Origin: a virus
Taxonomy: Duplodnaviria > Heunggongvirae > Uroviricota > Caudoviricetes
IMG/VR virus record: IMGVR_UViG_2718218131_000010
Coordinates: 1-18,400 of that record
DNA length: 18,400 bases
Strand: one strand, 5' to 3'
Shown here piece after piece: positions 1-15,333 of the stretch. The translations under genes were made by a program, and so were the position numbers. Numbering within the stretch: position 1 is the stretch's first letter; every line of letters begins with the position of its first letter. Below the pieces are notes generated by a model. It had not been told where the DNA came from. It saw nothing but the letters and a program-made list of their open reading frames with translations, and ran no database searches.

Positions 1-582
1 ATGAAAGGCGAAGTGAAAGAGCGCGGCATGATTTTTAACGATGAGATGGTCCGGGCAATTCTTGGCGGGAATAAAACACAGACTCGCAGGATTGTTGAAG
101 AAAAATTCTATGGACGGGCAGTGGCCGCAGAGTTGCTTGCCAAGCATTGTCCATATGGTCAACCGGGCGATCGTATTTGGGTTCGCGAAACCTACCGGGT
201 ACATGGCAAAGCGACGGACGTCGCAACGCTGGTTTATCGCGCAAGTGTGCGTAACTCCTGGACAGAACAAACGCACCGGGTTCCGGTCGAGGTTTGTAAT
301 AAACCAGTATCAGAAAAGTGGACGCCATCAATTCACATGCCGCGCTGGGCATCGCGCATTCTTCTGGAAATTACCAACGTGCGCGTTGAGCGGTTGAACG
401 ATATCAGCGAATGCGATGCAAGGACTGAGGGCGCACCAACAGAATCGACCCTCATTGGCGATAAGCATTACCCAGGTTTCCGTAGCCTATGGAAATCAAT
501 TTATGGCGAAGATAGTTGGAACGCTAATCCCTGGGTGTGGGTAATCGAGTTTGAGCGTATTCAGGGGGCAACCAGTGAGTGA
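1..582 (+). CDS. ASCH/PUA-like domain protein (possibly 5' truncated at window edge; alternative start at 28)
   Basis: ORF track 193 aa; N-terminal MIFNDEMVRAILGGNKTQTRR...RIWVRETY resembles the ASCH-fold signature (GxKTxExR followed by beta strand). Stop TGA 580-582 overlaps the next gene start. Family assignment from memory of the motif, not a search. Confidence 0.5.
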   Translation: MKGEVKERGMIFNDEMVRAILGGNKTQTRRIVEEKFYGRAVAAELLAKHCPYGQPGDRIWVRETYRVHGKATDVATLVYRASVRNSWTEQTHRVPVEVCNKPVSEKWTPSIHMPRWASRILLEITNVRVERLNDISECDARTEGAPTESTLIGDKHYPGFRSLWKSIYGEDSWNANPWVWVIEFERIQGATSE

Positions 583-835
583 GTCAAAATGCCAAATTAA
601 TGGCAACAAGATAGAACCGTGCGCGGCGTTGGCACAATCCCTGGAGCATGACGCTGAATACACGACGCGAAAAGGTCTGCTGAAATACAAAATCTATAAC
701 CATGAATTAATTCATTCACGAGACCTGATCATGCTGCGGTCTGGTGAATTTTCTAAATCGCCTATTCGAGTTTCATTTTGCCCGTTCTGTGGTGAAAGTC
801 TGAAAACGTGGGAAGCGGAGGCAACCAGTGAGTAA
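575..835 (+). CDS. small Cys-rich (putative zinc-ribbon) protein, GTG start
   Basis: Frame-2 ORF; likely start GTG 575 preceded by GGGGCAACCA (SD-like); contains CxxxxxxxxxC and CPFC pairs; overlaps upstream stop by 8 nt (translational coupling). Confidence 0.4.
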   Translation: MSESKCQINGNKIEPCAALAQSLEHDAEYTTRKGLLKYKIYNHELIHSRDLIMLRSGEFSKSPIRVSFCPFCGESLKTWEAEATSE

Positions 836-1016
836 CCGTTTTTACATGATGTGCTTGCGTGAAACTGTGGGTAATAACGCCTCATTCCATTGCCATAACG
901 GCAATGGTTACAGTTCTTGGCGCGGCGGAAGCGTTTATGATGCAGAAGCATGGCGAGATGGCTATGAAGCAGGGAAAACGCCTGTCGAAGTATATTGTGA
1001 TGAGTGGGGTGGGTGA
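828..1016 (+). CDS. small hypothetical protein (62 aa), GTG start
   Basis: ORF track; GTG 828 preceded by GGAGGCAACCA; stop 1014-1016 abuts ATG 1017 of the next gene. Confidence 0.35.
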   Translation: MSNRFYMMCLRETVGNNASFHCHNGNGYSSWRGGSVYDAEAWRDGYEAGKTPVEVYCDEWGG

Positions 1017-1745
1017 ATGATTTGCCTTCACAACGCAGACTGCTTTGACATCTTTCCGCAAATCGCCAGCAACTCCGTAGATCTTGTATGTGCCGATATT
1101 CCATATGGAACAACTCGGTGTCGCTGGGATTCTGTTCTCGACCTGCAGTTGATGTGGAAGCAGATTTACCGTATTTCCAAACCGAACGCTGCAATTGTTC
1201 TGTTTTCCGCTCAGCCTTTTACCAGCGTGCTGGTCAACAGCAATCTTCGTGACTGGAAAACAGAATGGATTTGGGAAAAGCCACACGCGACAGGATTTTT
1301 GAACGCAAAAAAACAACCTTTAAGAGCGCATGAAAATATTGAAGTTTTTTACAGAAAGCAACCGACATACAACCCACAGATGACGTATGGGCACGCCAGA
1401 AAAACCTCAACAAGAGGTAGGCTGAATACTGATGTATATGGCGATGCGCTGAAAAAGGTCGTTTACGATTCAACAAGTCGCTATCCGAGAGACGTGCAGA
1501 AATTCTCCAGCGACAAGCAAAAGCAGGCACTTCATTCAACACAAAAGTCACTGGCTCTGGTGAGATATCTGATTGAAACATATAGCAATATTGGCGACAC
1601 GGTGTTGGATTTCACTATGGGTAGCGGAACTACTGGCGTTGCGTGCCAACAATCAGGACGCCGATTTACAGGAATAGAAAAAGATCCAGAAATTTTTCGT
1701 ATCGCATTAGAGCGTATGGGAATTAAACAGGAGCATGCAGCATGA
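1017..1745 (+). CDS. DNA N6-adenine/N4-cytosine methyltransferase (PF01555-like, beta class), orphan
   Basis: 242 aa; N-terminal SVDLVCADIPYG (motif IV, DPPY-like) and C-terminal HSTQKSLALVRYLIETYSNIGDTVLDFTMGSGTTGVACQQSGRRFTGIEKD (motif I FxGxG, AdoMet binding). No adjacent restriction endonuclease gene. Confidence 0.85.
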   Translation: MICLHNADCFDIFPQIASNSVDLVCADIPYGTTRCRWDSVLDLQLMWKQIYRISKPNAAIVLFSAQPFTSVLVNSNLRDWKTEWIWEKPHATGFLNAKKQPLRAHENIEVFYRKQPTYNPQMTYGHARKTSTRGRLNTDVYGDALKKVVYDSTSRYPRDVQKFSSDKQKQALHSTQKSLALVRYLIETYSNIGDTVLDFTMGSGTTGVACQQSGRRFTGIEKDPEIFRIALERMGIKQEHAA

Positions 1746-1763
1746 TTTTTGTGGAGGCAACCA

Positions 1764-1946
1764 GTGAGCGAAATTAACTATCAAGAACTGCGCGAGGCGG
1801 CGGAACAGGCAACGCAAGATGAATGGGTAGCATATATTTTGCCGGTCATAACGGCATTTATCCTGCGCGCACGTCTGAGGGTAGGCATTGCGGATACTTT
1901 ATTGACTGGCCTGGCGTCTGTCAGGGGCGGGAGAGCATCAGCATGA
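1764..1946 (+). CDS. small hypothetical protein (60 aa), GTG start; N-terminus paralogous to ORF 2560-2985
   Basis: GTG 1764 preceded by GGAGGCAACCA; first ~12 residues VSEINYQELREAA match VSKIDYQVLREAA of the 2560 gene; stop overlaps ATG 1943 (ATGA). Confidence 0.3.
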   Translation: MSEINYQELREAAEQATQDEWVAYILPVITAFILRARLRVGIADTLLTGLASVRGGRASA

Positions 1947-2563
1947 GCATCAGAACCTACGCAGTGAATTGCAATGACGCATGGCTAAACACCGAAGGTG
2001 ATGACATCTCCGGCTCATACGTTAAGTACAAAGACCATCAGGAAGTGGTTGCCGCTCTTGAGGCCAAGTGCGCGGCGCTGGCAGCGGAGAATGCAAGACT
2101 GAAGGCCGGGGCTATGTATTTCTCATATGGCTCTGAATTTAGTTTCGAGTGTCACAAAACTGCTGAGGAGGCTATCGCTGCTGCTGAGGCTGCAATTGAC
2201 GACTATAGAGGCGATGCTTGCGATGGATGGAGCGAAGAGGTCGAAAGCATTTGCTGGGGGGTAATTATTCAGCAGGCAACCAAGGTCGGTGAACGCAAGA
2301 AGAGGAAATGCGACAGAGTATCACCATGGATTGAAAGAGTTTGTGATTATGAGCTTCGACCTAATGTCGAAACCCCAGCCACCGATGCTTTCCTTGCTGA
2401 AGTTCGGGCGCAGGGCGTGGAGATGCTGGCAAAAAATCATCAAAGTATCGTCAATGCACTTAAGGGGGATTCTTTATTTTCTGATGGTGAATACCGGCAT
2501 GCAATTATCGCTTCCGCAGCAACATCTTTCGCCGCCCAGCTTCGCAAAGGAGGCAACCAGTGA
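1943..2563 (+). CDS. hypothetical protein (206 aa)
   Basis: ATG 1943 with GGGAG about 10 nt upstream; the track ORF 1823-2563 is trimmed to this start; stop TGA 2561-2563 overlaps GTG 2560 of the next gene. Confidence 0.5.
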   Translation: MSIRTYAVNCNDAWLNTEGDDISGSYVKYKDHQEVVAALEAKCAALAAENARLKAGAMYFSYGSEFSFECHKTAEEAIAAAEAAIDDYRGDACDGWSEEVESICWGVIIQQATKVGERKKRKCDRVSPWIERVCDYELRPNVETPATDAFLAEVRAQGVEMLAKNHQSIVNALKGDSLFSDGEYRHAIIASAATSFAAQLRKGGNQ

Positions 2564-2985
2564 GCAAGATTGACTATCAGGTACTGCGTGAGGCAGCAGT
2601 AGCAATTGAAACAGTAGCAACGCCTCAAAAATTGCTGGCATTTCGTATGAAAGTCACACCTCAGGTTGTGCTGGCACTACTGGATGAACGGGAAGCAGAC
2701 AAAAAGCGCATTGCAGAACTGGAAGCTCGGGAAATAAAACCAGCCAAAGGTGAAGTTCTTGTCGTTGTTTCTGGTTTTACTGGTTGCGGAAAAAGCGCCA
2801 TTGCCGGGGAAATAGAAATCGCGATGAAGGCTATTGGTGTACCGGTTCAGTGGACTAATGGCGATGCAGAAAAGCGCATGACTGGCGCTGACTGGCTGAC
2901 TGCGATTGAGATGTACAAACCAACTGTGCGCATCGTGGAAGTTAATGTGCCCCGCGCCGCAGGCATTCGCATCAAAGGAGAGTGA
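2560..2985 (+). CDS. hypothetical protein (141 aa) with Walker-A-like GFTGCGKS motif
   Basis: GTG start in the conserved GGAGGCAACCAGTGAG junction; motif VVVSGFTGCGKSA fits G-x4-GKS, but the protein is short for an NTPase and no Walker B was seen. Confidence 0.5.
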   Translation: MSKIDYQVLREAAVAIETVATPQKLLAFRMKVTPQVVLALLDEREADKKRIAELEAREIKPAKGEVLVVVSGFTGCGKSAIAGEIEIAMKAIGVPVQWTNGDAEKRMTGADWLTAIEMYKPTVRIVEVNVPRAAGIRIKGE

Positions 2986-2986
2986 T

Positions 2987-3502
2987 ATGGCGTTAACACA
3001 CCACGAACTCTGTCAGATTGCGTACAAGTTCCTTAAGCGCAACGGGTTCAAGGTTTGTTTTCATGACCGCTTTATAGCTGTAACCAGTACCGGAGAACAG
3101 CCAGATGCTATGGGATTCAGAAATTCAGCATCATGCCTGATAGAGGCGAAGTGTTCTCGTGCTGACTTGTTAGCAGATAGAAAAAAGCGTTTTCGTAAAA
3201 ATCCGTCTCTTGGAATGGGCGACTGGCGATTCTTTATTAGTGAGCCGGGAATTATTTCAATTGAGGATTTACCACCTGGCTGGGGGTTACTTCACGTTGT
3301 TAACGGAAGAGTACGGAAAGTACATGGGTGGCCCAAGGGTAATTGCTGTTGGGGTAATCCTGACGATAAGCCATTTACTGGAAATAAGCAGGTTGAATGC
3401 GATTACATGTTATCTGCATTAAGGCGCATGGAGTTGAGAGGGCACCTTAATGAAATATATGACGGTGTAATTGTTAATAAGAAAGAAGGAAACGCGGCAT
3501 GA
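2987..3502 (+). CDS. PD-(D/E)xK nuclease-fold protein (MmcB-like?), 171 aa
   Basis: ATG 2987 with AAAGGAGAG RBS; motif ...GEQPDAMGF...CLIEAKCSRADLL fits a D...(D/E)xK restriction-endonuclease-like core. Family call is tentative. Confidence 0.45.
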   Translation: MALTHHELCQIAYKFLKRNGFKVCFHDRFIAVTSTGEQPDAMGFRNSASCLIEAKCSRADLLADRKKRFRKNPSLGMGDWRFFISEPGIISIEDLPPGWGLLHVVNGRVRKVHGWPKGNCCWGNPDDKPFTGNKQVECDYMLSALRRMELRGHLNEIYDGVIVNKKEGNAA

Positions 3503-4485
3503 TCACTATTACCAAAGAGCGACTACTGACAATCAAGCAGTGGCGCGAAACATACGGACCTGGTAGCAACGTTGTACTGCCAGCAGAAGAAGCGGAAGAA
3601 CTGGCGCGGATTGCACTGGCATCACTGGAAGCAGATCCAGTTGCTTATATTTTCAAACATCCGGCCGGGAAATTATTCTGGGCTTTAACGGATGAAAGCA
3701 ATAAAGAGCAAGCTGACGTTATTCCTGTTTATGCTGCCGCGCCTGCGTCGGTTGTGCCGGATAATGCATCAGAGCCTCTTGCTTATGCTTACAAAGAGCT
3801 TACGCCTGAGATTATGCGCAACCATTTAGCTGTATTCGAGCGATATGGAATAGCCCCAAACGATAGCTCTACCACAATTCAGGCACTGCGAATCGCGCTG
3901 GATGGCATAGAGCGGAGCGGCGCCATGCTTCATGGTGCCGAACCTGTAAGCCAAACTTACAAGTTGCTAGTTAATACACCTTGCCAAGATGCGCCAGCCC
4001 ATATCTGGCTGCAAACAGCTGGAGTATGGCCAGAAGATGGCGAGTTAAGCGAATTAACGTGGTGCAGCCACAATCAGCACCATGATGACACGCTATATGT
4101 TCGAGCTGACCTTGTGAATGGCAACTATCCGGATATTCCGGATAGTTCGGTGCCAGGGCCAGGAAAGGGCGTCACCGGTGAACGTATCCGCATTAAACCG
4201 CATGTTTATCGCGAACTGGTTAACCGTCTCCACGATACAGCGATCAAGTGTGCGGGCACCCAGCAATTACGAGAAAGAATTAGCCGTGTTTTGGGCGACG
4301 TTATTACGCCAGATCATCATAAACAAGCCGAGAAAAGTGGCTTGGAAAGGTGTCACCTTGAGGCGGCATTAAACATTAAGCCGGGGCATACGCTTGGCAT
4401 TATTGATGCACTATTGGTTCATAAGATGGCCAGGGCTTTATTGCCGCTGGTGGATGCTGGCGATACAAGCGAGGGTGAAGTATGA
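3499..4485 (+). CDS. hypothetical protein (328 aa)
   Basis: ORF track; ATGA overlap with upstream stop; AAGAAGGAAACG RBS. Confidence 0.6.
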   Translation: MITITKERLLTIKQWRETYGPGSNVVLPAEEAEELARIALASLEADPVAYIFKHPAGKLFWALTDESNKEQADVIPVYAAAPASVVPDNASEPLAYAYKELTPEIMRNHLAVFERYGIAPNDSSTTIQALRIALDGIERSGAMLHGAEPVSQTYKLLVNTPCQDAPAHIWLQTAGVWPEDGELSELTWCSHNQHHDDTLYVRADLVNGNYPDIPDSSVPGPGKGVTGERIRIKPHVYRELVNRLHDTAIKCAGTQQLRERISRVLGDVITPDHHKQAEKSGLERCHLEAALNIKPGHTLGIIDALLVHKMARALLPLVDAGDTSEGEV

Positions 4486-4844
4486 GAGTTGCAGATCACA
4501 TCAAACACCTTGAAAGAATTATCGAAAACGGTGAACTCTTAAGAGATCAGATGAGACGCACGGCAGAAGTCAGAGAGGCGATAATCCGCAGTCAGGCTGG
4601 TAAATTAAAGCAATTGTCAGAGATTAACGCGCTATACAAGAACAGACGTAACCGGGCGGCGCTGCGGCTTCAGAAAGCACGTAATGAAATTAAATTGGTG
4701 GAGGCAAAACTGAAAAAACAGATTCAGCGTTACGATCAGCAAGATGCTTTTTATGCCGCCATCAAGGCGGCTGCTAATGAAATAGGCATCTGGAAGTTGC
4801 TGGTGGAGAAAGCAAAGACGAAGTTAAATGCCAACGAAAGCTGA
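4482..4844 (+). CDS. hypothetical coiled-coil protein (120 aa)
   Basis: ORF track; ATGA overlap with upstream gene; K/R/E-rich heptad-like composition. Confidence 0.55.
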   Translation: MRVADHIKHLERIIENGELLRDQMRRTAEVREAIIRSQAGKLKQLSEINALYKNRRNRAALRLQKARNEIKLVEAKLKKQIQRYDQQDAFYAAIKAAANEIGIWKLLVEKAKTKLNANES

Positions 4845-4918
4845 ACTACAGGTACCCACCAGCACATACAGAAAATGATTGTTTCCACATCAAGGAGATT
4901 TTAATGTTTCACTGAACA

Positions 4919-5056
4919 TTAAGTAAGCCAGTGCATAATTCCATTTTTTACTGACCTTAAAAGCAAAATCAAAACGATGATGAGGATGATCGCCAGAATC
5001 TGGCTAATAACAGGCGCATCTAAAAATGCACTCAGGAACTGAAAAAAAGCAGTCAT
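4919..5056 (-). CDS. candidate 45-aa hydrophobic single-TM peptide (MTAFFQFLSAFLDAPVISQILAIILIIVLILLLRSVKNGIMHWLT)
   Basis: Hand-translated minus-strand ORF below the 60-aa track cutoff; ATG at 5056-5054 with AGGA 9 nt upstream; one strongly hydrophobic helix followed by basic residues; stop at 4921-4919. Confidence 0.3.
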   Translation of the reverse strand: MTAFFQFLSAFLDAPVISQILAIILIIVLILLLRSVKNGIMHWLT

Positions 5057-5097
5057 TAAGGTGGTTCCTTGTCAAATGTAAAGGAGCACTTGCTCAC

Positions 5098-5126
5098 GTT
5101 GACGTAGAAACCCAACCCCTATATAG
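5098..5126 (+). promoter_or_regulatory. near-consensus sigma70 promoter (TTGACG-17 bp-TATAGT)
   Basis: -35 TTGACG 5098-5103, 17-bp spacer, -10 TATAGT 5121-5126; divergent from the small peptide gene; may drive hot via a long leader or a small RNA/ORF (5155-5352). Confidence 0.4.
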
Positions 5127-5505
5127 TTGGATTCGGTGAAAGAAAGTCGTTAACGTGAGCTTACGGCACATGTTTTCGGAACAACATCAGGGAACGGCTA
5201 ATTCCTTGATGCGGATGGGGTCTGTAATGCAGACCCTATCTATTAACGTCATGATTGCATCTCAAATTTTCTCCTTATCTTCATTAATCAAAATTCATTT
5301 CATTTGTGAAACATCACAATATTTAGAAAATGGCCCTCTTGCAAGTGCATAACTTTGTGGATAAATCAGGAAGAAAAAAGTTGATTCTGCGCACGGCAAG
5401 GCAGATAAGCTGTGCACAAAAATCAATGGGAGAAGAAAAAAAATTAAAAGTTACTTTGCTGGTTAAATAATAGTCGTTACTCAATTATTCTGGATGGGAT
5501 TTGAT

Positions 5506-5757
5506 ATGCACGATTGGAATATTGCAGCTAAAAGTCAGGAAGAACGGGATAAGGTTAACGTTGATCTGGCTGCCAGCGGTGTGGCGTACAAAGAGCGATT
5601 GAACATACCTGTCATAGCTGAACAGGTAGCCCGCGAGCAACCAGAGAATCTGCGCACCTATTTCATGGAACGGCTACGGCACTACCGGCAGTTAAGCCTC
5701 CAGTTGCCAAAAGGGAGCGATCCGGCATATCAGAAAGATGATGCCGTAAAGAAATAG
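5506..5757 (+). CDS. hot: Hot, homolog of DNA polymerase III theta subunit (HolE)
   Basis: [43 protein letters not shown] closely parallels E. coli HolE ([43 protein letters not shown]). Start at 5506 preferred (GGGA SD); in-frame alternative ATG at 5494. Confidence 0.85.
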
Positions 5758-5763
5758 CGGTAG

Positions 5764-6336
5764 TTAACCGTTTTGAACTTCTCGTATCCTGGCAATGACA
5801 GCTTCATGTTGGGCTTGGATAGCGGCTTTTTCGTTTTCAAGTCGGGCAATAGACATCTCTAATTCTTTGCTGTACCAGGCGAGTTGGGCCAGGTTCATCC
5901 GGTTGTGGTCGAGAGTTGGAGACACTTCGACGCGATCCCTTTCTTCCTGTTTTAATGAGAAGAGATTCATCTCATCCCTTGAGGAAAATTCAGCAACAAT
6001 TTCTTGTTGATGATCCGGTCGCTGCGGCATCCTCGCCAGTATAAATGGCGGTTCTTTTGAAAACATGAATGTCGGTTCAGAACGTGTTTTCACCCATCTA
6101 GCCTGCTGTCTTTCGGCAAGTTCACAGGCTTCATCATAGTTATTTGCCAAACCAAGCACGGATGGACGGTCCCACGCGCCACCATTCAGACAATAAACAA
6201 CAATTTTCCCGTCATGTTCTGTAACCCCATAGGGATGGTCCCACCAGGCGTCCAGCTGAGCTTTAGAGCGTTTCTCGTTAGGAGTGCAGTCAAAATTTTT
6301 GGGCAATACAGGATCGAGAGGAATGCGATTAGGCAT
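5764..6336 (-). CDS. hypothetical protein (190 aa), divergent from humD; position matches P1 lxr
   Basis: ORF track; lies between hot and humD as in the P1 gene order hot-lxr-humD (recalled, not verified by sequence). Confidence 0.55.
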   Translation of the reverse strand: MPNRIPLDPVLPKNFDCTPNEKRSKAQLDAWWDHPYGVTEHDGKIVVYCLNGGAWDRPSVLGLANNYDEACELAERQQARWVKTRSEPTFMFSKEPPFILARMPQRPDHQQEIVAEFSSRDEMNLFSLKQEERDRVEVSPTLDHNRMNLAQLAWYSKELEMSIARLENEKAAIQAQHEAVIARIREVQNG

Positions 6337-6471
6337 AGCTAATTCCTTATTAACTGATTGGCAACGAGGTTACGCTGATCCGTTGGTGATGAATAGTAGC
6401 AAAGAGCACAAAATCATCAGCGGTGGTTGATGTACGTAACGCGTTTGCACCAAAGGTGTCCCTTTAATGTA

Positions 6472-6491
6472 TACTGTATAAATGAACAGTA
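6472..6491. promoter_or_regulatory. LexA (SOS) box TACTGTATAAATGAACAGTA
   Basis: Matches the CTGT-N8-ACAG consensus exactly; 20 bp upstream of humD ATG; overlaps a TATAAA/TATACT -10 candidate with TTGCAC as a possible -35 at 6445-6450. Confidence 0.85.
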
Positions 6492-6510
6492 TTATTGAGG
6501 TGAAAACGCT

Positions 6511-6900
6511 ATGGGCTTCCCTTCTCCTGCGGCGGATTATGTTGAAAGCAGAATTTCTCTTGATCAGCAACTAATCAGGCATCCATCAGCGACCTACTTC
6601 ATGCGGGCGGCAGACAGCCATCACCGTGAGGGAATATTGCAGGGTGCTTTGCTGGTGGTTGATTCCTCGCTTACTCCGGTTGATGGTTCGCTGCTTGTCT
6701 GCGCTATGGAGGGTGAATATCGCATAAAGAGATACCGAAAGTATCCGCGCCAGCACCTGGAGGATTTAAGCACCGGGAAGAAAGAGGCGTTACCAGTAGA
6801 TGACGATGGTTACACGGGTAGTAATGCCGTGTTTGGTGTGATCACTCATGTCATCAATGATGCCCGGAGTGGGGAGTTTGATGATTGTCCGGTCATTTAA
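6511..6900 (+). CDS. humD: HumD, UmuD' homolog (translesion synthesis accessory)
   Basis: 129 aa; UmuD-like peptidase S24 C-terminal region (LLVCAMEGEYRIKRY...VFGVITHVIN); LexA box immediately upstream. Confidence 0.9.
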   Translation: MGFPSPAADYVESRISLDQQLIRHPSATYFMRAADSHHREGILQGALLVVDSSLTPVDGSLLVCAMEGEYRIKRYRKYPRQHLEDLSTGKKEALPVDDDGYTGSNAVFGVITHVINDARSGEFDDCPVI

Positions 6901-6972
6901 GCTGCAAAGTGCTGGTGCTTTATGCCTGTGAAGTTTATAATTGTGTACACATAACGAGTACACGAGGTGTTT

Positions 6973-7194
6973 ATGCAATCCATTAACTTCCGTACCGCGC
7001 GCGGCAACCTTTCTGAAGTGCTCAACAATGTTGAAGCCGGGGAAGAGGTTGAAATCACCCGCAGAGGCCGTGAGCCAGCAGTAATTGTCAGCAAGGCTAC
7101 TTTTGAAGCCTACAAAAAAGCGGCGCTGGATGCTGAATTTGCATCCCTGTTTGACACCCTGGACTCCACCAACAAGGAACTGGTTAACCGATAA
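6973..7194 (+). CDS. phd: Phd antitoxin (prevent host death)
   Basis: [49 protein letters not shown]... matches P1 Phd; TAATG overlap with doc. Confidence 0.95.
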
Positions 7195-7574
7195 TGAGGC
7201 ATATATCACCGGAAGAACTTATTGCGCTTCATGATGCGAATATAAACCGCTACGGCGGCTTGCCGGGAATGTCAGATCCGGGTAGGGCAGAGGCCATTAT
7301 CGGGAGAGTTCAGGCCAGAGTTGCCTACGAAGAGATCACCGACCTTTTCGAAGTCTCCGCCACCTACCTGGTGGCTACAGCGAGAGGGCATATATTCAAT
7401 GATGCCAATAAGCGTACCGCGCTAAACAGTGCGCTGTTATTTCTACGCCGTAACGGGGTGCAGGTATTTGATTCACCTGAACTGGCAGACCTTACTGTAG
7501 GCGCTGCGACTGGCGAGATATCTGTATCTTCTGTCGCCGACACGTTACGTAGATTGTATGGTTCTGCGGAGTAG
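7194..7574 (+). CDS. doc: Doc toxin (death on curing, Fic-fold kinase)
   Basis: 126 aa [22 protein letters not shown]...[11 protein letters not shown]... matches P1 Doc; 1-nt overlap with the phd stop. Confidence 0.95.
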
Positions 7575-7578
7575 ATTA

Positions 7579-7758
7579 ATGGCACGCAAATACAACAAAT
7601 TGTCCCGTGAAGCGTTAAAGATGCTTCTTGATGGCGTGAGTCGCCGCAAGGTAAAGCAATACCTGGTTGGTAAGCAAATTGGTGCCAGGACCGCTATTGC
7701 TGTGTTATGCCGTCAGGAAATGGTTGTGCTTAAACAGAGAATGCCGGGCAGCAGATAA
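7579..7758 (+). CDS. pdcA: small basic protein downstream of doc (pdcA by synteny)
   Basis: ATG 7579 with GGAG 7 nt upstream (track ORF begins at 7558 inside doc); symbol assigned from P1 gene order only. Confidence 0.5.
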   Translation: MARKYNKLSREALKMLLDGVSRRKVKQYLVGKQIGARTAIAVLCRQEMVVLKQRMPGSR

Positions 7759-7785
7759 AGCCCAATCAGTGATGAAAGGTGTGAT

Positions 7786-8829
7786 GTGAAAGCCGTAATT
7801 ACTCCCTTTGTACAAAAAGTGCTTGGCGTCGCCACATTCAAAGTGGATCAGGAAGTCAGAAAGCTGGTGGAGGCTGGCCGTAAATTTATTATGGAGCCGG
7901 TGCCGCGTGAGTTAATCGAGCACATGGACGACGGCCTCGTTGTTTCCGAGCAAACTATGGCAACAAATGAGGCGTTGCAGCCGTTTTTTAACAGCGATGA
8001 ACTGTTTCGCCGTATTGGTGGAATTGACTCGCTGGTGGCGTGGTTGCGCAGGAAAGAGGGGCAATGCCAGGCCGCAGATCGTAGTTGGTGTGACAACCAT
8101 ATTGTCCACGCTGAACGAGACAATAGCGCGGTGTTGTTGTGCTGGCATCACGATAACCATTACCGGATGCGTGGTTTTAATGAGCTGAAAGAAACGCTGC
8201 ATAATAATCGCGTTAACTGGATACTGGATGTCGCCCGTCAGGAAATGGGGCTTTCAGATGGCCATGATTTAAGTATTCAGGAACTGTGCTGGTGGGCTTT
8301 CATGCGCAACATGATGCACCTGATGCCGGAAGAAGTTTGCCGTATATCAATAAATAAGATGAAAGCCGCAACGCAGGATAGCGGACCTCTGAAAGAGGCG
8401 GATATTCGCCCGTATGACGATCGCGCTACAGCATATGTTCAGATGATGGAAGAACGCGCCGCGCCGATGCGTGCAAAAGTATGCCCTGTGGATGTAGACT
8501 CCGACCCTGGCATGGCGCATTTCAAAATACCAAAACTTCAATCGCTAAAATTGCCCGAGTACATGGACTTTGTGGCTTCCCGTCCATGCTGTGGCTGTGG
8601 AGCTGCGGGAGCTGGCGCTCACATTACGCCTTATATCGTTCGTCATAGTCGATTATGCGCGCATGACATTTATGCTATTCCTCTGTGCCAGTCATGCCAG
8701 CGTGATATTGAGCGTGACCTCGATAATTGGGAGAAGACGCACGGTAGGCTGGCGATGCATCAACGATTGTTCTTTGATTACGCGCTTGGAGTCGGCGCTA
8801 TCACAAGTCACTCGTCGAGCGTTAGATAA
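7786..8829 (+). CDS. pdcB: hypothetical protein 347 aa (pdcB by synteny); C-terminal Cys/His-rich region
   Basis: GTG start 7786 with AAAGG RBS; C-terminus contains [12 protein letters not shown]...C...H...C..C, a possible metal-binding/HNH-like region; symbol from P1 gene order. Confidence 0.6.
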
Positions 8830-8830
8830 A

Positions 8831-8847
8831 ATTGCTCTAATGTATTG
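8831..8847 (+). promoter_or_regulatory. C1 repressor operator-like site upstream of lpa (ATTGCTCTAATGTATTG)
   Basis: 13/17 match to the P1 C1 operator consensus ATTGCTCTAATAAATTT, including the invariant ATTGCTCTAAT core. Confidence 0.6.
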
Positions 8848-8917
8848 CTATTTCTTTAATCGAGGGTATTATATTCCACGTTGATTAGTTGACATGGGCT
8901 AATCAGTAGGTGACAGG

Positions 8918-9370
8918 ATGTTACTTAACTGGCAGGGACGCCACTTCATGGAAATAAATCACTCACGAATAACATCGTACGAGATTGCGGATTACATGAT
9001 CCGCACTAAATCTCTTCTATCAGCGAAAGAACTCGCAGCAATTCTTGAAAAGGAATACCCGCATCTGGATGTCGATAAGCGCGATGTTTATCTGCGCTTA
9101 AAGGCTATCGCTGTGTCTAAGTATTCGTCTGTTTTGATTGATGACAGTACACGCCCACGTAGATTTCAGATCCACTCTCTGAATCCTGAATTCTTTCGCC
9201 GCAGCCGCGCTCCGCGCCGGTTTGATGAAAAACTCCAGAACGAACTCTATATGACGCAGGACGAAAAGGAACGCCGGGAGCACCAGCCTTGGGTAATGGC
9301 GCGTCAACTTTTCAATAAGGTGGCCCGTCAGCACCGTCATTACGGTAATGCCACATCCGCACGTATCTGA
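8918..9370 (+). CDS. lpa: Lpa, late promoter activator
   Basis: 150-aa ORF directly preceded by a C1 operator and followed by pacA, as in P1; AGGTGA RBS before ATG 8918. Confidence 0.75.
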   Translation: MLLNWQGRHFMEINHSRITSYEIADYMIRTKSLLSAKELAAILEKEYPHLDVDKRDVYLRLKAIAVSKYSSVLIDDSTRPRRFQIHSLNPEFFRRSRAPRRFDEKLQNELYMTQDEKERREHQPWVMARQLFNKVARQHRHYGNATSARI

Positions 9371-9380
9371 TTGATTGCTT

Positions 9381-9399
9381 GCCCGTTCCGGGCCTTTTG
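9381..9399 (+). terminator. putative rho-independent terminator after lpa
   Basis: GCCCG-TTC-CGGGC stem-loop followed by CTTTTG. Confidence 0.4.
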
Positions 9400-9455
9400 A
9401 CATGTGACTTTCGTTACCCTCGCGTCAAAAAGAGTTTTTACGAAAGGAAGCATAA

Positions 9456-10649
9456 GTGACCTGGGACGATCACAAGAAGAATTTTGCTCGCCTGGCGCGA
9501 GATGGTGGTTACACCATCGCACAGTATGCCGCCGAGTTTAATCTTAACCCTAATACCGCACGTCGTTATCTCCGTGCCTTCAAAGAAGACACCAGGACTA
9601 CGGACAGCCGCAAGCCAAATAAGCCAGTCAGGAAGCCACTAAAAAGCATGATCATTGATCACTCTAATGATCAACATGCAGGTGATCACATTGCGGCTGA
9701 AATAGCGGAAAAACAAAGAGTTAATGCCGTTGTCAGTGCCGCAGTCGAGAATGTGAAGCGCCAAAATAAGCGCATAAATGATCGTTCAGATGATCATGAC
9801 GTGATCACCCGCGCCCACCGGACCTTACGTGATCGCCTGGAACGCGACACCCTGGATGATGATGGTGAACGCTTTGAATTCGAAGTTGGCGATTACCTGA
9901 TAGATAACGTTGAAGCGCGGAAGGCCGCGCGCGCTATGTTGCGTCGGTCCGGGGCCGATGTTCTGGAAACCACTCTTCTGGAAAAGTCTCTTTCTCATCT
10001 CCTTATGCTGGAGAATGCCAGGGATACGTGTATTCGCCTGGTGCAGGAAATGCGCGATCAGCAAAAAGACGATGATGAAGGTACTCCGCCTGAATACCGT
10101 ATCGCGAGCATGCTAAACAGCTGTTCCGCGCAGATAAGCAGCCTGATCAACACCATTTACAGCATCCGGAATAACTATCGAAAAGAAAGCCGGGAGGCGG
10201 AAAAGCACGCTTTGTCTATGGGGCAAGCTGGCATTGTTAAGCTGGCATACGAACGAAAGCGTGAAAATAACTGGTCAGTGCTGGAAGCAGCTGAATTCAT
10301 CGAGGCGCATGGCGGGAAAGTTCCGCCCCTGATGCTGGAGCAAATCAAAGCCGATCTGCGTGCTCCTAAGACCAATACCGATGATGAGGAAAGGCAGACA
10401 GCCGTCGGCGGCCCTTCTCTTGAAGATCTGGACAAAGTTGCGCGAGAACGGGCCGCCAACCGCCGCGCCGATGCCGCATTGTGGATTGAGCAGCGTAGGG
10501 AAGAAATCGCCGATATCGTTGATACAGGCGGTTATGGAGATGTTGATACTGAAGGTGTATCAAACGACCCATGGCTGGAACAAGACCTGGACGAAGACGA
10601 GGAGGAAGACGAAGAAGTTACCCGCAAGCTATACGGGGATGATGATTAA
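9456..10649 (+). CDS. pacA: PacA, terminase small/pac-recognition subunit
   Basis: 397 aa; contains the pac site internally; acidic C-terminal tail; GTG start with AAGGAAG RBS. Confidence 0.9.
9649..9807. other. pac packaging site: 4 + 3 TGATC(A/G) hexamers with Dam GATC cores
   Basis: TGATCA at 9649, 9656, 9668, 9683 and TGATCG/TGATCA at 9779, 9791, 9802 inside pacA; matches the known bipartite P1 pac architecture. Confidence 0.85.
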
Positions 10650-12133
10650 TGGCCAGAAGTTGCGTAACGGATCCACGTTGGCGCGAGCTGGTGGCGCTAT
10701 ATCGTTATGACTGGATTGCGGCCGCTGATGTTTTGTTTGGGAAGACACCAACCTGGCAGCAGGATGAGATCATTGAGTCCACGCAGCAGGACGGCAGTTG
10801 GACAAGTGTGACCTCCGGCCATGGTACTGGTAAGTCGGATATGACGAGTATCATTGCAATACTCTTCATCATGTTTTTCCCCGGCGCTCGCGTCATTCTG
10901 GTCGCTAACAAAAGACAGCAAGTCCTTGATGGTATTTTCAAATATATAAAGAGCAATTGGGCTACTGCTGTTAGCAGATTCCCGTGGTTGTCGAAGTATT
11001 TCATTCTTACAGAAACGTCTTTTTTTGAGGTGACTGGCAAGGGTGTTTGGACAATATTGATAAAGTCCTGTCGCCCCGGAAATGAGGAGGCGTTGGCTGG
11101 TGAACACGCCGATCATCTCTTGTATATCATCGACGAAGCGTCGGGTGTGAGTGATAAAGCATTCAGTGTGATAACAGGTGCGCTGACCGGTAAGGATAAC
11201 CGTATTCTGCTTCTTTCCCAGCCTACGCGACCTTCAGGCTATTTCTACGATTCACACCACAGACTAGCTATTCGCCCGGGAAATCCTGATGGATTGTTTA
11301 CTGCGATAATACTGAATAGTGAAGAATCTCCGCTTGTAGATGCAAAATTTATACGAGCAAAACTTGCGGAGTATGGCGGTCGTGATAACCCCATGTACAT
11401 GATCAAAGTACGTGGTGAATTTCCCAAATCTCAAGATGGCTTTCTTCTTGGTCGTGATGAGGTTGAGCGGGCGACGCGGCGAAAGGTCAAGATTGCCAAA
11501 GGATGGGGCTGGGTTGCATGTGTTGACGTTGCTGGTGGCACAGGACGAGATAAGTCCGTTATTAATATCATGATGGTGTCCGGCCAGCGAAATAAACGCC
11601 GTGTAATCAACTATCGTATGCTGGAATACACAGACGTTACAGAAACGCAGTTAGCCGCCAAGATTTTCGCAGAATGTAACCCAGAACGGTTCCCGAACAT
11701 AACCATAGCTATTGATGGCGATGGCTTGGGGAAATCGACGGCTGATCTGATGTACGAACGCTATGGTATTACCGTCCAGCGTATCCGCTGGGGTAAAAAG
11801 ATGCACAGCCGTGAAGATAAAAGCCTTTATTTCGATATGCGCGCTTTCGCGAATATTCAGGCGGCAGAAGCTGTAAAATCAGGGCGTATGCGGCTTGATA
11901 AGGGGGCTGCGACTATAGAGGAAGCATCAAAGATACCGGTCGGGATAAATTCCGCAGGTCAATGGAAGGTGATGTCAAAGGAAGATATGAAGAAAAAACT
12001 CAACCTGCACTCACCGGACCATTGGGATACATATTGTTTCGCTATGTTGGCGAACTATGTACCCCAAGATGAAGTGCTTAGCGTCGAAGACGAAGCGCAG
12101 GTTGATGAAGCTCTGGCATGGCTTAATGAGTAA
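10649..12133 (+). CDS. pacB: PacB, terminase large subunit
   Basis: 494 aa; start overlaps the pacA stop (TAATG); position and size as in P1. Confidence 0.9.
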
Positions 12134-12136
12134 AAA

Positions 12137-12153
12137 CTTGCTCTAATAAATTG
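12137..12153 (+). promoter_or_regulatory. C1 operator-like site (CTTGCTCTAATAAATTG)
   Basis: 15/17 match to the C1 operator consensus; sits 4 bp after the pacB stop at the head of the antirepressor module. Confidence 0.65.
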
Positions 12154-12154
12154 T

Positions 12155-12310
12155 GTTTTTTTGGCTGCCGATGTTACATTGAACCTGAACTCTTGCGCCT
12201 TGAGGCATTTTCGGTTTATGCTTATCAGGCACCTCATTAAAACGGGTGCCGGGATTGGAACCCCGGATAATGCAAAAGGCGACACAGACGCCAAAAGCGT
12301 CTTTTTTTGT
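12155..12310 (+). ncRNA. candidate C1-controlled small RNA or leader segment ending at an intrinsic terminator
   Basis: No ORF; contains GGCUGCC (12164-12170) and a hairpin CCGGG-AUUGGAAC-CCCGG (12249-12266); ends with GACGC-CAAAA-GCGTC followed by T7 (12287-12308). Confidence 0.3.
12287..12308 (+). terminator. rho-independent terminator (GACGCCAAAAGCGTC + TTTTTTT)
   Basis: 5-bp GC stem, 5-nt loop, 7 T run; flanked by GACACA / TGTGTC extending the stem. Confidence 0.6.
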
Positions 12311-12339
12311 GTCATGCCATCGCACAGCCATACGTAGCA

Positions 12340-12493
12340 CATAGCTCCGAGATCAATGGTAGTGCTGGCTGGGCTGCCGAAAGGCAGGCCGGTTCCCTTT
12401 TGCGCCGGTAGTTCCAACCCAGTCAGTGCTACCGCCATTGAGATTGGAACCTCACGCGGTAGCTCCTAAAGTTAGCAAAAGGAGGCTGCCATT
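12340..12493 (+). promoter_or_regulatory. structured leader upstream of the icd-like ORF with anti-SD and kissing-loop elements
   Basis: Local hairpin CUGCC-GAAA-GGCAG (12373-12387); hairpin CGGTAG...CTACCG with GUUCCAAC in its loop (12405-12435); second AUUGGAACC (12443-12451); GGCUGCC overlapping the SD GGAGG (12481-12490). Confidence 0.4.
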
Positions 12494-12715
12494 ATGGCTA
12501 CTATCCCTACCCCAACTCACCCTGAATTTATCTGGCGCTTTTACTCCTGCCAGAAACGTCACTATCACTTCGTTATCGCAACAACAGAAGATGAGGCCCG
12601 CTCTCAGCTTCCTGACGCCCCATGTATTTTCTCTGCCCGTTTTTCCACTGATTCACGCAATTCTCTCAGTTACTGGTGCCTCCCTGTTAACGCTTCTGCT
12701 CAGGAGGGACTATGA
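12494..12715 (+). CDS. small ORF translationally coupled to the antirepressor (icd-like position)
   Basis: 73 aa; GGAGG 8 nt upstream; stop TGA overlaps the ant ATG (ATGA), the same coupling architecture as icd-ant in P1 immI. Confidence 0.45.
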   Translation: MATIPTPTHPEFIWRFYSCQKRHYHFVIATTEDEARSQLPDAPCIFSARFSTDSRNSLSYWCLPVNASAQEGL

Positions 12716-13824
12716 GAACGTCATTAGTCACCCGTGAAGAGATGATCGAGGCAATTGAACGGCACACTGCCTGTATCAGTACCAGGGATATACCGGGCGT
12801 TATTGCCAACTACTTCATGATCACCAAACAACTTTACCGGAGAAAGGACAAGAACGCGGTTCACCGCATCCTGCTAACCGATATCCGTGAATACCTGCTC
12901 GAACAGGGTCATCTGAATTACGCAACCGTCGCAGCCGAAGCACGCAAGGAGGCACACAGAATGAAAGCAACTAACGTTAAATCAGAAAAAATTCATGCAC
13001 CTTCAGTTCAGGAATCGGAACTGGTGGTTGTTCAGAATCAGCCGGATGAAATTCCCGTTCTGGAATGGCAGGGAGTACGTGTCGTGACAACCGAAACTCT
13101 TGCTAGAGGGTATGGGGTCGATGAAGCCAATATTCGCAACAATTTGTCTCGCAACCTTGACCGCTTTGAAGAAGGTAAGCATTACTTTCTTCTAACTGGT
13201 TTAAAATTAAGAGAATTTAAGAACAGAGTAACCGGAAGTTACTCTGTTGGTAAGAACGCCAGAAGCCTTACACTCTGGACAGAGCGCGGCGCTGCACGCA
13301 TGTCTAAGATCGTGGACACAAATGAAGCATGGGCATTCTTTGAAAAACTGGAAGACAGCTACTTCCGGCAAAAAGAACAGCAACCGGTTGCAATCCCCCA
13401 GACGCTTCCAGAAGCTCTGCGCCTGGCTGCCGAACTGGCTGAACAAAAGCAGCTTCTGGAACAGAAAGCCCACCAGCTAAATCAGCAGCTGGTGGCCGCC
13501 GCTCCTAAAGTCGATTTTGCCGACCGGGTATCAGTAGCTAAAGGGATCCTGATTGGGAATTTTGCAAAGGTTGTTGGACTTAAGCAAAACGCGCTGTTTG
13601 CCTGGTTACGGGAGAACGGCATCCTGATAGCGTCCGGTGGACGTAAAAATGTGCCGTTCCAGCAGTACATCAATGCGGGGTATTTCACGGTGAAAGAAGT
13701 GGTGCTGGATGATGAAGATGGCTACCAGATACGGTTGACGCCTCAATTAACGGGTAAAGGCCAGCAGTGGTTGACGCGTAAACTGCTCGATGCTGGCTTG
13801 TTAAAACCGGTGGCGGCTGAATAA
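12712..13824 (+). CDS. phage antirepressor (Ant-like; ORF6N N-terminal and KilA-C/ANT C-terminal domains)
   Basis: 370 aa; VRVVTTETLARGYGVDEANIRNNLSRNLDRFEEGKHYF...LTLWTERGAARMSKIVDTNEAWAFFEKL (ORF6N-like) and FAKVVGLKQNALFAWLRENGIL...VPFQQYINAGYFTVKE (KilA-C/ANT-like). Confidence 0.75.
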   Translation: MRTSLVTREEMIEAIERHTACISTRDIPGVIANYFMITKQLYRRKDKNAVHRILLTDIREYLLEQGHLNYATVAAEARKEAHRMKATNVKSEKIHAPSVQESELVVVQNQPDEIPVLEWQGVRVVTTETLARGYGVDEANIRNNLSRNLDRFEEGKHYFLLTGLKLREFKNRVTGSYSVGKNARSLTLWTERGAARMSKIVDTNEAWAFFEKLEDSYFRQKEQQPVAIPQTLPEALRLAAELAEQKQLLEQKAHQLNQQLVAAAPKVDFADRVSVAKGILIGNFAKVVGLKQNALFAWLRENGILIASGGRKNVPFQQYINAGYFTVKEVVLDDEDGYQIRLTPQLTGKGQQWLTRKLLDAGLLKPVAAE

Positions 13825-13833
13825 TGGAAGAAT

Positions 13834-13862
13834 GCCCGGTTGATGCCGGGCATAATTTATTG
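13834..13862. terminator. convergent terminator hairpin between ant-like gene and c1
   Basis: GCCCGG-TTGATG-CCGGGC followed by ATAATTTATT; overlaps the c1 stop codon region. Confidence 0.5.
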
Positions 13863-14708
13863 CGCGCTTTCGGGGTTGTCGTTTACTGGCTGCCCCTTCT
13901 TGGTTTTACGGCTGCGCGTAACTGATGCGGCTGACTTAACCTTTTTCTCTTCGCGAGTGATGGCAATTTGTTTTTTTACATTTTCAATATCTGCCAGGCG
14001 ATATATTTTTGCTTGCGGCCAGCGGTCGCAGATGATCGGTTCTATGGAGTCATAAAGGCTAAATTTTGCTTTTTCGAATTCACCGTTGATGATAATTCCA
14101 TCACGGAGAGTTTCATCGCAGATAAACACGCCACACAGTGGCACATGGTAACTAACTGATTTACCATCATTGTAGTTAGGGCTACTGGAAATGTAGTGGA
14201 CGCGCAGCATTGTTTCGCTAAAGCCGTGTACGCGCATACGGAATTTTTCATCCTCCGGGTACTGCTTCATTAGCTCTTTTGTTGCTTCCAGGTTCTCTAT
14301 GTATTTCGCACTGTGCTCATTGATCCCCGCGCTTTTTTGGATGCGAATGTCCTTATCAATCAGATGAATAATGCGGCCAGCGGTCATGTTGACGCTGTTC
14401 ACAGCTTCTGTCTGATAAGTTGTAACCTTACGCACACCGCGAAGGATGTTAGGCACAGGATATAAAATAGTCTTTGGGATATTGAGATCTGGGTACTGTT
14501 CCAGTTCCCGCGCCATTAAAGTCCATTTATCAATTTCTGCCTGAATGCTGTCCGTTTCTTTGAACGGCAGAACGACAACCGGGCGTACAGGACGACCGTC
14601 GCTGGCGGCATCAACGTGTTGGGCGCGTGCAACAGCTTTTTTTAGAAAGAGATCCCTGAAGCTGACGAACTCCTGGTACAGTTGTTCGCCGTAGACATAA
14701 TTTATCAT
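13857..14708 (-). CDS. c1: C1 repressor of lysogeny
   Basis: 283 aa MINYVYGEQLYQEFVSFRDLFLKK... matches P1 C1 as recalled; multiple C1 operators in the vicinity. Confidence 0.95.
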   Translation of the reverse strand: MINYVYGEQLYQEFVSFRDLFLKKAVARAQHVDAASDGRPVRPVVVLPFKETDSIQAEIDKWTLMARELEQYPDLNIPKTILYPVPNILRGVRKVTTYQTEAVNSVNMTAGRIIHLIDKDIRIQKSAGINEHSAKYIENLEATKELMKQYPEDEKFRMRVHGFSETMLRVHYISSSPNYNDGKSVSYHVPLCGVFICDETLRDGIIINGEFEKAKFSLYDSIEPIICDRWPQAKIYRLADIENVKKQIAITREEKKVKSAASVTRSRKTKKGQPVNDNPESAQ

Positions 14709-14802
14709 TGATCCTCCTCCAGAATTGACATGGCCAACAACTCACAGCGGATAACACTGAGAGTTGTTGGGCACCATTATAGAAGGATCTAACGAAAATA
14801 AT

Positions 14803-14819
14803 AGATTTATTAGTGCATT
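14803..14819 (-). promoter_or_regulatory. C1 operator-like site between coi and c1
   Basis: Minus-strand AATGCACTAATAAATCT, 14/17 match to the consensus. Confidence 0.5.
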
Positions 14820-14821
14820 TA

Positions 14822-15028
14822 TTATGAGTCTGGCTGGTTAGTGGTCATGAGATATTCAATTGTGTCAGTGAGATCATCTAGGTCGTCGGGGGTGATACGG
14901 TACTCCTGATTGGATATCTTTGAGTAGTGTTCAGCAATGGCGCGAGCAGCGTCGGTTTCGGTGGGATCTACAGATAAAGCGTTAGAGCAATGTCTAACGT
15001 CGTCGATAGTTGGTGGAATGAAAGCCAT
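14822..15028 (-). CDS. coi: Coi, C1 inactivator
   Basis: 68-aa acidic ORF immediately upstream of c1 on the same strand, as in P1 immC. Confidence 0.8.
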   Translation of the reverse strand: MAFIPPTIDDVRHCSNALSVDPTETDAARAIAEHYSKISNQEYRITPDDLDDLTDTIEYLMTTNQPDS

Positions 15029-15250
15029 AATTATGCCTCACTGTATTTACAACACAGAGCCTGAAGCTCTGACCTACTGTTTCACCCATGATCCATGCTG
15101 GGGTTATCTAACAACATTGCGCTGTGTGTAAGATGAGCAATGCATAGCTGTAATGCCCTGTTTGCTCATTTCCTTCTGAGCCGCTCTACAACACTGAAGA
15201 CACATTAAATAGTGAATCCAAAGTCGTATTACGAAACGGCGGCAAAGCTA

Positions 15251-15267
15251 TAATTTATTAGAGCAAT
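15251..15267 (-). promoter_or_regulatory. C1 operator (Op99-type), minus orientation
   Basis: Reverse complement ATTGCTCTAATAAATTA, 16/17 match. Confidence 0.65.
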
Positions 15268-15333
15268 TGTCAAACAACTATGAAAAACAATCCAGTTTTT
15301 GGCTGGTGGAGTGGGATTTTACTCTCAAAATTT

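Follow-up and report, generated by a model that had tools for sequence, protein, structure and literature searches.

A possible type I toxin–antitoxin-like module in the pmgV–hot spacer of P1-like phage-plasmids

The pmgV–hot spacer and its distribution

The DNA analysed here (positions 1 to 18,400 of IMG/VR record IMGVR_UViG_2718218131_000010, a stretch of 18,400 nucleotides (nt) that we call the window) is phage P1-type DNA, with bases 4400-5900 being 99.2% identical to P1 (NC_005856) and 99.9% identical to phage JL22. Our subject is the spacer between pmgV, which ends at 4844, and hot (5494-5757, or from an alternative start at 5506), considered as a candidate locus for a small membrane peptide and an antisense RNA; its length of ~650 nt bears out the 660-bp gap before hot noted in an initial annotation made from the sequence alone. 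The gene neighbours of the spacer (hot, lxr and humD) are replication and SOS genes. In the P1 RefSeq record the spacer is already annotated, with three plus-strand open reading frames (ORFs; in window coordinates, upfM at 5026-5139, upfN at 5155-5352 and upfO at 5330-5470), predicted sigma-70 promoters (PupfN, TTGACG-17-TATAGT, among them), LPhot as a late promoter and 56 bp that share 94% identity with an Escherichia coli region containing two DnaA boxes. In an older record (M95666), the complement strand is labelled with an 'nrdA-like promoter' and a 'dnaA box'. Missing from P1 RefSeq is a minus-strand ORF of 45 amino acids (4919-5056; pep45 hereafter), which is a hypothetical protein in JL22, in SJ46 and in the output of the Prokaryotic Genome Annotation Pipeline (PGAP; WP_000123562.1). 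A search of the accessible literature library returned nothing describing transcripts or function for the pmgV–hot spacer.

Searches covering plasmids, phages, IMG/VR, metagenomes and GTDB genomes, together with two protein searches, returned the same three clades throughout: a P1-like clade (at least 99% identity), a P7/SJ46-like clade without hot (96-98%) and a clade at ~78-81% identity, 'c78', carried on SSU5-like phage-plasmids with an unrelated backbone. For more distant relatives, three DNA scans of viral contigs and the genome, metagenome, word-indexed protein and full HMMER scans yielded only these clades or chance matches. The module occurs in 215 of the 5,426 complete E. coli genomes (~4%), with 221 of 222 copies on plasmids. 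Since the window and the c78 plasmid have in common only 4857-5742 (81%) and a humD segment at 6462-6899 (85%), the unit from pep45 to hot, plus humD, moves as a cassette, the left edge of which (the start of SSU5-like homology) lies at 4857, ~60 nt past the pep45 stop codon. The spacer module is separable from hot, being present without it in P7/SJ46 and absent from RCS47, in which hot lies 33 nt after another gene; this separability supports the interpretation developed below.

Two further observations concern the cassette. For hot, the ATG at 5506 (83 amino acids), which is the PGAP choice, is a more likely start than 5494; the c78 clade keeps the equivalent of that ATG, and hot is called there at 252 nt (83 amino acids). 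One IMG/VR sequence (L029) is a natural recombinant that joins a P1-type pep45 half to a P7-type nrd half at a junction inside or next to the conserved block described below, and exchange between clades therefore happens at the spacer.

A conserved promoter and a probable structured RNA on the plus strand

Identity between P1 and c78 varies steeply along the cassette, from 67% in the 3′ flank of pep45 (4857-4918) and 77.5% in pep45 itself (4919-5056) to 61% at 5057-5092, 97.6% at 5093-5133, 97.8% at 5134-5179 and 85% at 5180-5284, followed by a hypervariable stretch at 5285-5324 (44%, with a 19-nt insertion in c78), an nrd core at 5325-5364 (92.5%) and the hot coding sequence (89.5%). The most conserved part begins with the predicted sigma-70 promoter TTGACG-17-TATAGT, the PupfN of P1 RefSeq, which matches the consensus at 10 of 12 positions, faces hot and has a predicted start at ~5134; the initial annotation had recognized it, one base off at 5098-5126 rather than 5099-5127. 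A promoter-like match is not in itself above chance here (2 sites, against 2.3 expected in shuffled sequences). Its conservation does exceed chance, with 1 difference from c78 in 41 nt (5093-5133) where flanking non-coding DNA is 44-74% identical, and extends to the promoter spacer and to the stretch upstream of the start site. The three upf ORFs behave differently from this block: all have in-frame stops in c78, the P7 clade has frameshifts in upfN and upfO as well, and PGAP calls none of them. Because their reading frames are broken in relatives, we rejected upfM, upfN and upfO as genes, which they probably are not. That judgement includes the GTG-initiated ORF of 65 amino acids at 5155-5352, which the initial annotation had listed as unannotated; the ORF exists, corresponds to upfN and is not conserved as a frame.

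What is conserved downstream of the promoter appears instead to be a structured non-coding RNA. The promoter and the ~150 nt that follow it (5093-5284) are 90.7% identical between P1 and c78, and 98% identical over their first 87 nt; because this identity matches that of the hot coding sequence, despite the broken upfN frame, the block is as constrained as a protein gene. The RNA domain (5134-5284, plus strand) is predicted to form three stem-loops, SL1 (5152-5174), SL2 (5185-5211) and SL3 (5213-5241, with a 12-13-bp stem), which are enclosed by a closing helix (5135-5147 with 5266-5279). The core of SL3 is the hairpin GGGTCTG-TAATG-CAGACCC, which had been noticed initially and lies at 5218-5236, 12 nt to the left of the first assignment (5230-5248). 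For plus-strand positions 5134-5300 the minimum free energy (MFE) is −49.4 kcal/mol (z = −3.97, with 0 of 200 shuffles as good), and the c78 sequence folds independently to the same architecture (z = −3.85), whereas the complementary strand folds much worse (z = −1.63 and −2.03) because many of the pairs are G-U. The first 46 nt of the RNA are nearly invariant, and conservation stops where the closing helix stops. Substitutions avoid the stems (6 of 100 paired versus 12 of 57 unpaired positions, p = 0.008), with the SL2 loop and the SL1–SL2 linker varying between clades and one compensatory change in SL3 (T5221C/A5233G). This domain is the candidate antisense RNA.

The RNA matched no Rfam 15 family, even at E ≤ 10 (the best hits in 4400-6000 reached 11-18 bits, far below threshold), using a library that does detect C4 and isrK elsewhere in the window, and a covariance model built on it recovered known copies only. 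One 20.7-bit covariance match, in another sequence (L197, 4798-4926), was dismissed; SL1 and SL3 are missing from it.

Two alternative explanations bear on this block. The plus-strand RNA might be a stand-alone small RNA that acts in trans, or a protein-binding RNA, targeting host or phage functions, with its position opposite pep45 being incidental. Such a role would suit a non-coding RNA with a strong, conserved promoter, a compact and conserved multi-stem fold that is asymmetric between strands, and a nearly invariant, seed-like first 46 nt. We nonetheless think it very unlikely: the RNA lacks the terminator or U-tail typical of Hfq-dependent small RNAs, belongs to no Rfam family, has no further copies or relatives by covariance model or DNA scan, and is always linked to pep45 and to the promoter that faces it. 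Still harder to credit, and in our view highly improbable, is that nothing beyond the promoters is functional, the block being a recent recombination tract or hitch-hiking segment exchanged between co-resident phage-plasmids, and pep45 and the RNA fold being chance features of AT-rich accessory DNA. P1-like plasmids have eight highly variable, mosaic regions, one of which includes the spacer (PMC9603915), the P1/P7 recombinant L029 has its junction inside or next to the block, only three clades are available, and the pep45 frame has a 17% chance of staying open (see below). Against these points, conservation is graded (98%, then 85%) and ends with the closing helix, substitutions avoid stems and include one compensatory stem pair, and the fold z-scores are near −4 in both clades. 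In addition, 18 of the 25 differences in hot are at third codon positions, so enough time has passed since the lineages split for DNA free of constraint to diverge.

The −10 element of the plus-strand promoter sits in the loop of a near-palindrome, AACCCAAC-N9-GTTGGATT (5108-5135), which could be an operator or only a hairpin of the minus-strand RNA. Its core, CCCCTATATAGT, resembles the palindrome CCCCCTATATATAGTG of the E. coli nrdA leader, possibly an NrdR box, minus one TA. Binding sites in the block were compared by eye only, giving 10 of 17 positions to the C1 operator consensus and, for NrdR, a CTATATAG core that is one TA shorter than the NrdR box.

A candidate small-peptide gene and a host-derived promoter on the minus strand

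On the opposite strand, pep45 (4919-5056) is an ATG-initiated ORF encoding MTAFFQFLSAFLDAPVISQILAIILIIVLILLLRSVKNGIMHWLT, a candidate small membrane peptide or toxin with an amphipathic N-terminus, a single very hydrophobic helix and a basic C-terminal tail. The ORF and its plausible ribosome-binding site are present as first described, with a Shine-Dalgarno (SD) sequence, AAGGAA, at 5065-5070, 8 nt before the ATG; this persists as GAGGA in c78, although the surrounding 5057-5092 is only 61% identical. The frame is open at 45 amino acids in 76 of 76 copies across all three of the clades examined, and it is the only spacer ORF to remain intact in all three clades, upfM, upfN and upfO being broken. 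Between P1 and c78, 27 of the 45 residues are identical, the hydrophobic helix and basic tail are kept, and the N-terminal FFQFLSAFL(D/N)AP is nearly invariant. The best 19-residue Kyte–Doolittle means are 3.08 (P1) and 2.59 (c78), and the peptide has the properties by which type I toxins are recognized (fewer than 60 amino acids, hydrophobic, with a predicted transmembrane helix). The only matches in a full HMMER scan of 1.84 billion proteins were copies of pep45 itself with an altered C-terminus.

At least one of these altered copies carries an IS1 insertion at the 3′ end of the ORF. In a P1-type plasmid (L200; NZ_AP026785.1, ~204-973), IS1 lies in the last pep45 codons and changes the end of the peptide to ...KNGVMTPTY*, and a c78-type variant in the protein database (P0003) has the same VMTPTY ending, which points to two independent IS1 insertions at the pep45 3′ end. 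Such insertions remove the 3′ untranslated region (UTR) of the gene.

The candidate promoter of a pep45 mRNA is the leftward-facing, nrdA-like promoter at 5316-5364 (minus strand), which combines a −35 element, TTGCAA (5339-5344), a −10 element, TATTGT (5316-5321), and two DnaA boxes recognized by sequence match (TTATGCACT, 5344-5352; TTATCCACA, 5356-5364), with a predicted start at ~5306-5312. Over the 115 nt from 5326 to 5440, identity to the E. coli chromosomal DNA just before nrdA is 82.6%, and it is higher still in the P7 clade. From the E. coli nrdAB promoter the spacer has retained the two DnaA boxes, TTGCAA and the distance between the hexamers, whereas the downstream gene here is pep45 and not ribonucleotide reductase. 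In the matching E. coli locus, nrdA starts ~110 nt downstream and is on the minus strand in window orientation, as translation of the flank confirms, so the copied promoter is oriented to fire leftward, toward pep45. Only the promoter and its upstream region were captured from the host; the sequence that it would transcribe bears no relation to the nrdA leader. P7 (TATTGT), c78 (TACTGT) and a D6/SSU5-like plasmid (TTGCAT-17-TATCTT) likewise have both hexamers. A relaxed scan for a nearer minus-strand promoter of pep45 gave no other site with at least 8 of 12 consensus positions between 5057 and 5400. High DnaA-ATP represses nrdAB in E. coli, whereas DnaA-ADP, or a low level of DnaA-ATP, activates it (PMC8203912). 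The nrdA-like promoter of the spacer is, on the strength of its boxes, a candidate for DnaA regulation.

A transcript from this promoter would carry a long 5′ leader with its own, speculative, translation signals (5187-5276, minus strand). These comprise a possible SD sequence, AAGGAG (5271-5276), a mini-ORF, ATG CAA TCA TGA (5249-5260), that becomes ATG-TAA in c78, and a 21-amino-acid ORF (5187-5252) that is open in 76 of 76 copies and in all clades. In the latter, 6 of 7 codon-changing substitutions alter the amino acid, and the frame may be open only because the block is conserved.

We predicted the structure of the putative pep45 mRNA with RNAalifold on the clade alignment, taken on the minus strand. 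Within the putative 3′ UTR (4857-4918), the prediction places a hairpin over the pep45 stop codon (~4899-4921), in which one pair has changed in a compensatory way (UA to CG) and a GC-to-GU change is compatible with the minus strand only, and a CCUUG anti-SD element (plus-strand CAAGG, 4891-4895), which forms a 5-bp helix with the pep45 SD and carries an A-U to G-U change. The 3′ UTR also includes a conserved terminal element (~4857-4880). Further upstream, it includes mirror images of SL2 and SL3, as well as a long hairpin that encloses the plus-strand promoter, in which the c78 change G5159A converts G-C to G-U on the minus strand only. A 13-bp helix joins the leader ATG region to the last conserved 3′ bases, with 3 of 3 changes keeping the pairing. 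The long-range helices in the prediction keep pairing through all one-sided changes but are energetically weak. The predicted c78 mRNA can pair its initial 20 nt with the terminal 20 conserved nt of the cassette at −28.1 kcal/mol, with 0 of 1,000 shuffles as good. These mRNA structures are only suggestive, because there are effectively two lineages and because the structure was derived from the same alignment.

The nrdA-like promoter also occurs in other settings. A D6/SSU5-like plasmid (L009; NZ_CP020118.1, 1087-1260) has neither pep45 nor the conserved block, and in it the nrdA-like promoter and DnaA boxes lie back-to-back with the LexA-box/humD region; ~75 nt after that promoter, the minus strand carries a strong bidirectional terminator (AAAAAGCCCAG...CTGGGCTTTTT), and the promoter may there make a short RNA of its own. 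In the P7/SJ46 clade (L005), the copy of the nrd upstream region is much closer to that of E. coli (L011) than the P1 copy is (window 5382-5440), and the LexA-box/humD region follows it directly. This arrangement suggests an ancestral nrd-like/humD junction, into which hot and lxr were inserted or from which the P7 arrangement arose by deletion.

Proposed convergent transcription and likeness to type I loci

The initial annotation had suggested a small toxic-peptide or small-RNA locus separable from hot, an interpretation that we find partly supported: the comparative data favour the locus itself, and the 65-amino-acid ORF included in it was wrong. It had also seen no antisense overlap, which does not hold once the nrdA-like promoter (hexamers at 5316-5344) is taken into account, since a transcript from there would overlap the plus-strand RNA by ~175 nt, the distance between the predicted starts of the two convergent promoters (~5134 on the plus strand and ~5309 on the minus strand). 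We tentatively propose that the spacer is a type I toxin–antitoxin-like, cis-antisense module, a reading that we favour here while recognizing that it may well be wrong. Under this proposal, the spacer would consist of two convergent transcription units in place of the three upf ORFs. The strong sigma-70 promoter at 5099-5127 would produce a non-coding RNA, the first ~150 nt of which (5134-5284) would form the closing helix around three stem-loops, and the weak, host nrdA-derived promoter with DnaA boxes (5316-5364, minus strand) would produce an mRNA whose ~250-nt leader is the exact complement of that RNA and which would then encode the 45-amino-acid single-helix membrane peptide (from 5056 down to 4919). 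Pairing of the abundant plus-strand RNA with the leader of the peptide mRNA, together with transcription collision between the facing promoters, would keep the peptide off, and the DnaA-controlled promoter would tie its expression to replication status. The consensus matches of the two promoters, a sequence proxy for their strengths (10 of 12 for the RNA promoter versus 8 of 12 for the pep45 promoter), fit a type I module.

The convergent-promoter layout resembles that of the "divergently overlapping" type I loci, ldr/rdl and hok/sok. In ldr/rdl, the long direct repeat system of E. coli, a small hydrophobic peptide (LdrD, of 35 amino acids) is encoded by an mRNA with a long 5′ UTR, and the gene for the antisense RNA (RdlD) lies inside that UTR, divergent from the peptide ORF, with the ribosome-binding site left uncovered and with a strong antisense promoter. 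The spacer module resembles this layout, and pep45 has weak local similarity to LdrD (LDAPVISQILAIILI versus LAAPVIAGILASMIV, 8 of 15 identical, pairwise E = 0.001). It differs in that neither pep45 variant matches Ldr_toxin (PF13940) at E ≤ 10 (LdrD control, 6.5e-27), the plus-strand RNA has no Rfam rdlD match, the antisense domain is ~150 nt long with four helices and no terminator (Rdl is ~60 nt), and the toxin promoter is nrdA-derived.

In hok/sok, a plasmid-borne system (R1), the toxin promoter is weak and is opposed by a strong promoter for the antisense RNA, pairing between its 5′ and 3′ ends locks the mRNA, and the antisense RNA targets the leader and its reading frame and not the toxin ribosome-binding site. 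Here, too, the candidate antisense RNA covers a possible leader SD and ORF, and c78 has strong predicted pairing between the 5′ and 3′ ends. However, pep45 has no Hok/Gef Pfam match and the plus-strand RNA no Sok Rfam match, even at E ≤ 10; the leader ORF ends ~130 nt before pep45, so that mok-like translational coupling is impossible; and in the P1 and P7 clades the fold-back does not reach significance. Membership of pep45 in the Ldr, Hok or other toxin families was therefore rejected for want of a profile match. A third comparison is with the E. coli modules tisB/istR-1, dinQ/agrB and symE/symR, in which damage-responsive promoters drive small membrane toxins restrained by a constitutive small RNA. 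The module likewise lies among hot, lxr and humD and has a promoter taken from a replication-stress-responsive gene, whereas its predicted control is by DnaA boxes and not LexA (the LexA box belongs to lxr/humD), its pairing would be cis-antisense and fully complementary and not short and in trans, and no family match links it to these modules. As no known toxin or RNA family is matched, the module, if real, would be a new sequence family.

Several results count against the proposed module. For the peptide, the coding signal is modest: the 31 of 138 nt that differ between P1 and c78 are spread over codon positions as 11/8/12, with no third-position bias (compared with 4/3/18 in hot), 17% of randomly mutated pep45 copies stayed open in simulation, and the observed BLOSUM score is only within the top 18% of those open copies. 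Nor does pep45 match any family in Pfam, PHROG, NCBIfam or PADLOC, or any known toxin family among them. Its candidate promoter reaches only 8 of 12 consensus positions, with its activity in P1 being a prediction, and the plus-strand RNA starts 78 nt upstream of the pep45 ATG and so does not cover the pep45 ribosome-binding site. For the mRNA fold, the P1 and P7 5′–3′ fold-backs reach −13 to −16 kcal/mol (p = 0.05-0.16), with significance in c78 only, and the long-range helices of P1 and P7 are no better than shuffled controls, with no outstanding partner for the 3′ tail; we therefore do not take a hok-like fold-back, strong in c78 only, to be a general feature. Pairs from the MFE structure of P1 alone favour neither strand (13 kept and 22 broken on the minus strand versus 11 and 18 on the plus strand), and support from substitutions for a whole-mRNA MFE structure was likewise discarded, the minus strand faring no better than the plus. 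More generally, the three clades amount to effectively two independent lineages, and the covariation to a handful of events. Finally, no intrinsic terminator was found after the plus-strand RNA, in which AUUAACG comes after SL3; a single, weak terminator-like site was seen, within pep45 on the minus strand. The plus-strand transcript may therefore read on into hot.

This last point leads to an explanation that we regard as unlikely but that deserves serious attention, namely that the plus promoter simply expresses hot (or humD, where hot is missing) in lysogens, with the structured RNA serving as a regulatory or stabilizing 5′ leader and pep45 being either a small gene with no connection to it or an ORF that is open by chance. 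From 5134 to hot no terminator is predicted, every clade has plus-strand hot and/or humD downstream of the promoter, and the modest coding evidence for pep45 is as this explanation would have it. Moreover, hot is reportedly expressed in lysogeny as well as in lytic growth (according to the title of Chikova & Schaaper 2007, cited in PMC4713147), and its only mapped promoter is the late LPhot. On the other hand, the hot of RCS47 lacks the block and sits 33 nt after another gene, the block is present without hot in P7/SJ46, the transcript would need to pass through an oppositely directed promoter with DnaA boxes, and the stretch between the block and hot includes the hypervariable 5285-5324 (44%, with the 19-nt insertion). 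Further, the left boundary of the cassette takes in pep45 and its 3′ flank, and a plain leader leaves the conserved promoter spacer and the region upstream of the start site unexplained. Expression of hot is partly compatible with the antisense module, since both roles could fall to a single RNA. P1 plaque formation is unaffected when upfN, upfO and hot are knocked down by CRISPR interference (PMC10695390), a result that fits an accessory module and separates none of these models.

A more ambitious version of the type I proposal, which we consider quite unlikely, is that P1-like and SSU5-like phage-plasmids carry a replication-gated toxin module that combines a host-derived, DnaA-controlled nrdA promoter, a new membrane-peptide family and a 150-nt, four-helix antisense RNA that silences the peptide and doubles as the lysogenic leader or promoter of hot, the homologue of Pol III theta. 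Release of the peptide would then follow plasmid loss or replication arrest, causing addiction or abortive infection besides phd/doc. P1 is a reference phage and the prototype phage-plasmid; if the type I reading is true, three long-standing upf genes would give way to a non-coding RNA and a small membrane protein, and phd/doc would be joined in P1 by a second module for addiction or stress, this one RNA-based. The spacer would also be a clear example of a host cell-cycle promoter (nrdA, with its DnaA boxes) captured by a phage to time the expression of a small-peptide gene.

Elsewhere in the window, two known RNAs were matched at the Rfam gathering level, both on the plus strand between pacB and c1: the Hfq-binding RNA isrK (12229-12307, 62.4 bits) and the C4 antisense RNA (12352-12439, 76.7 bits), followed by ORFs at 12426-12737 and 12712-13824. 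The region 12229-12439 looks like an immunity or antirepressor-type cassette.

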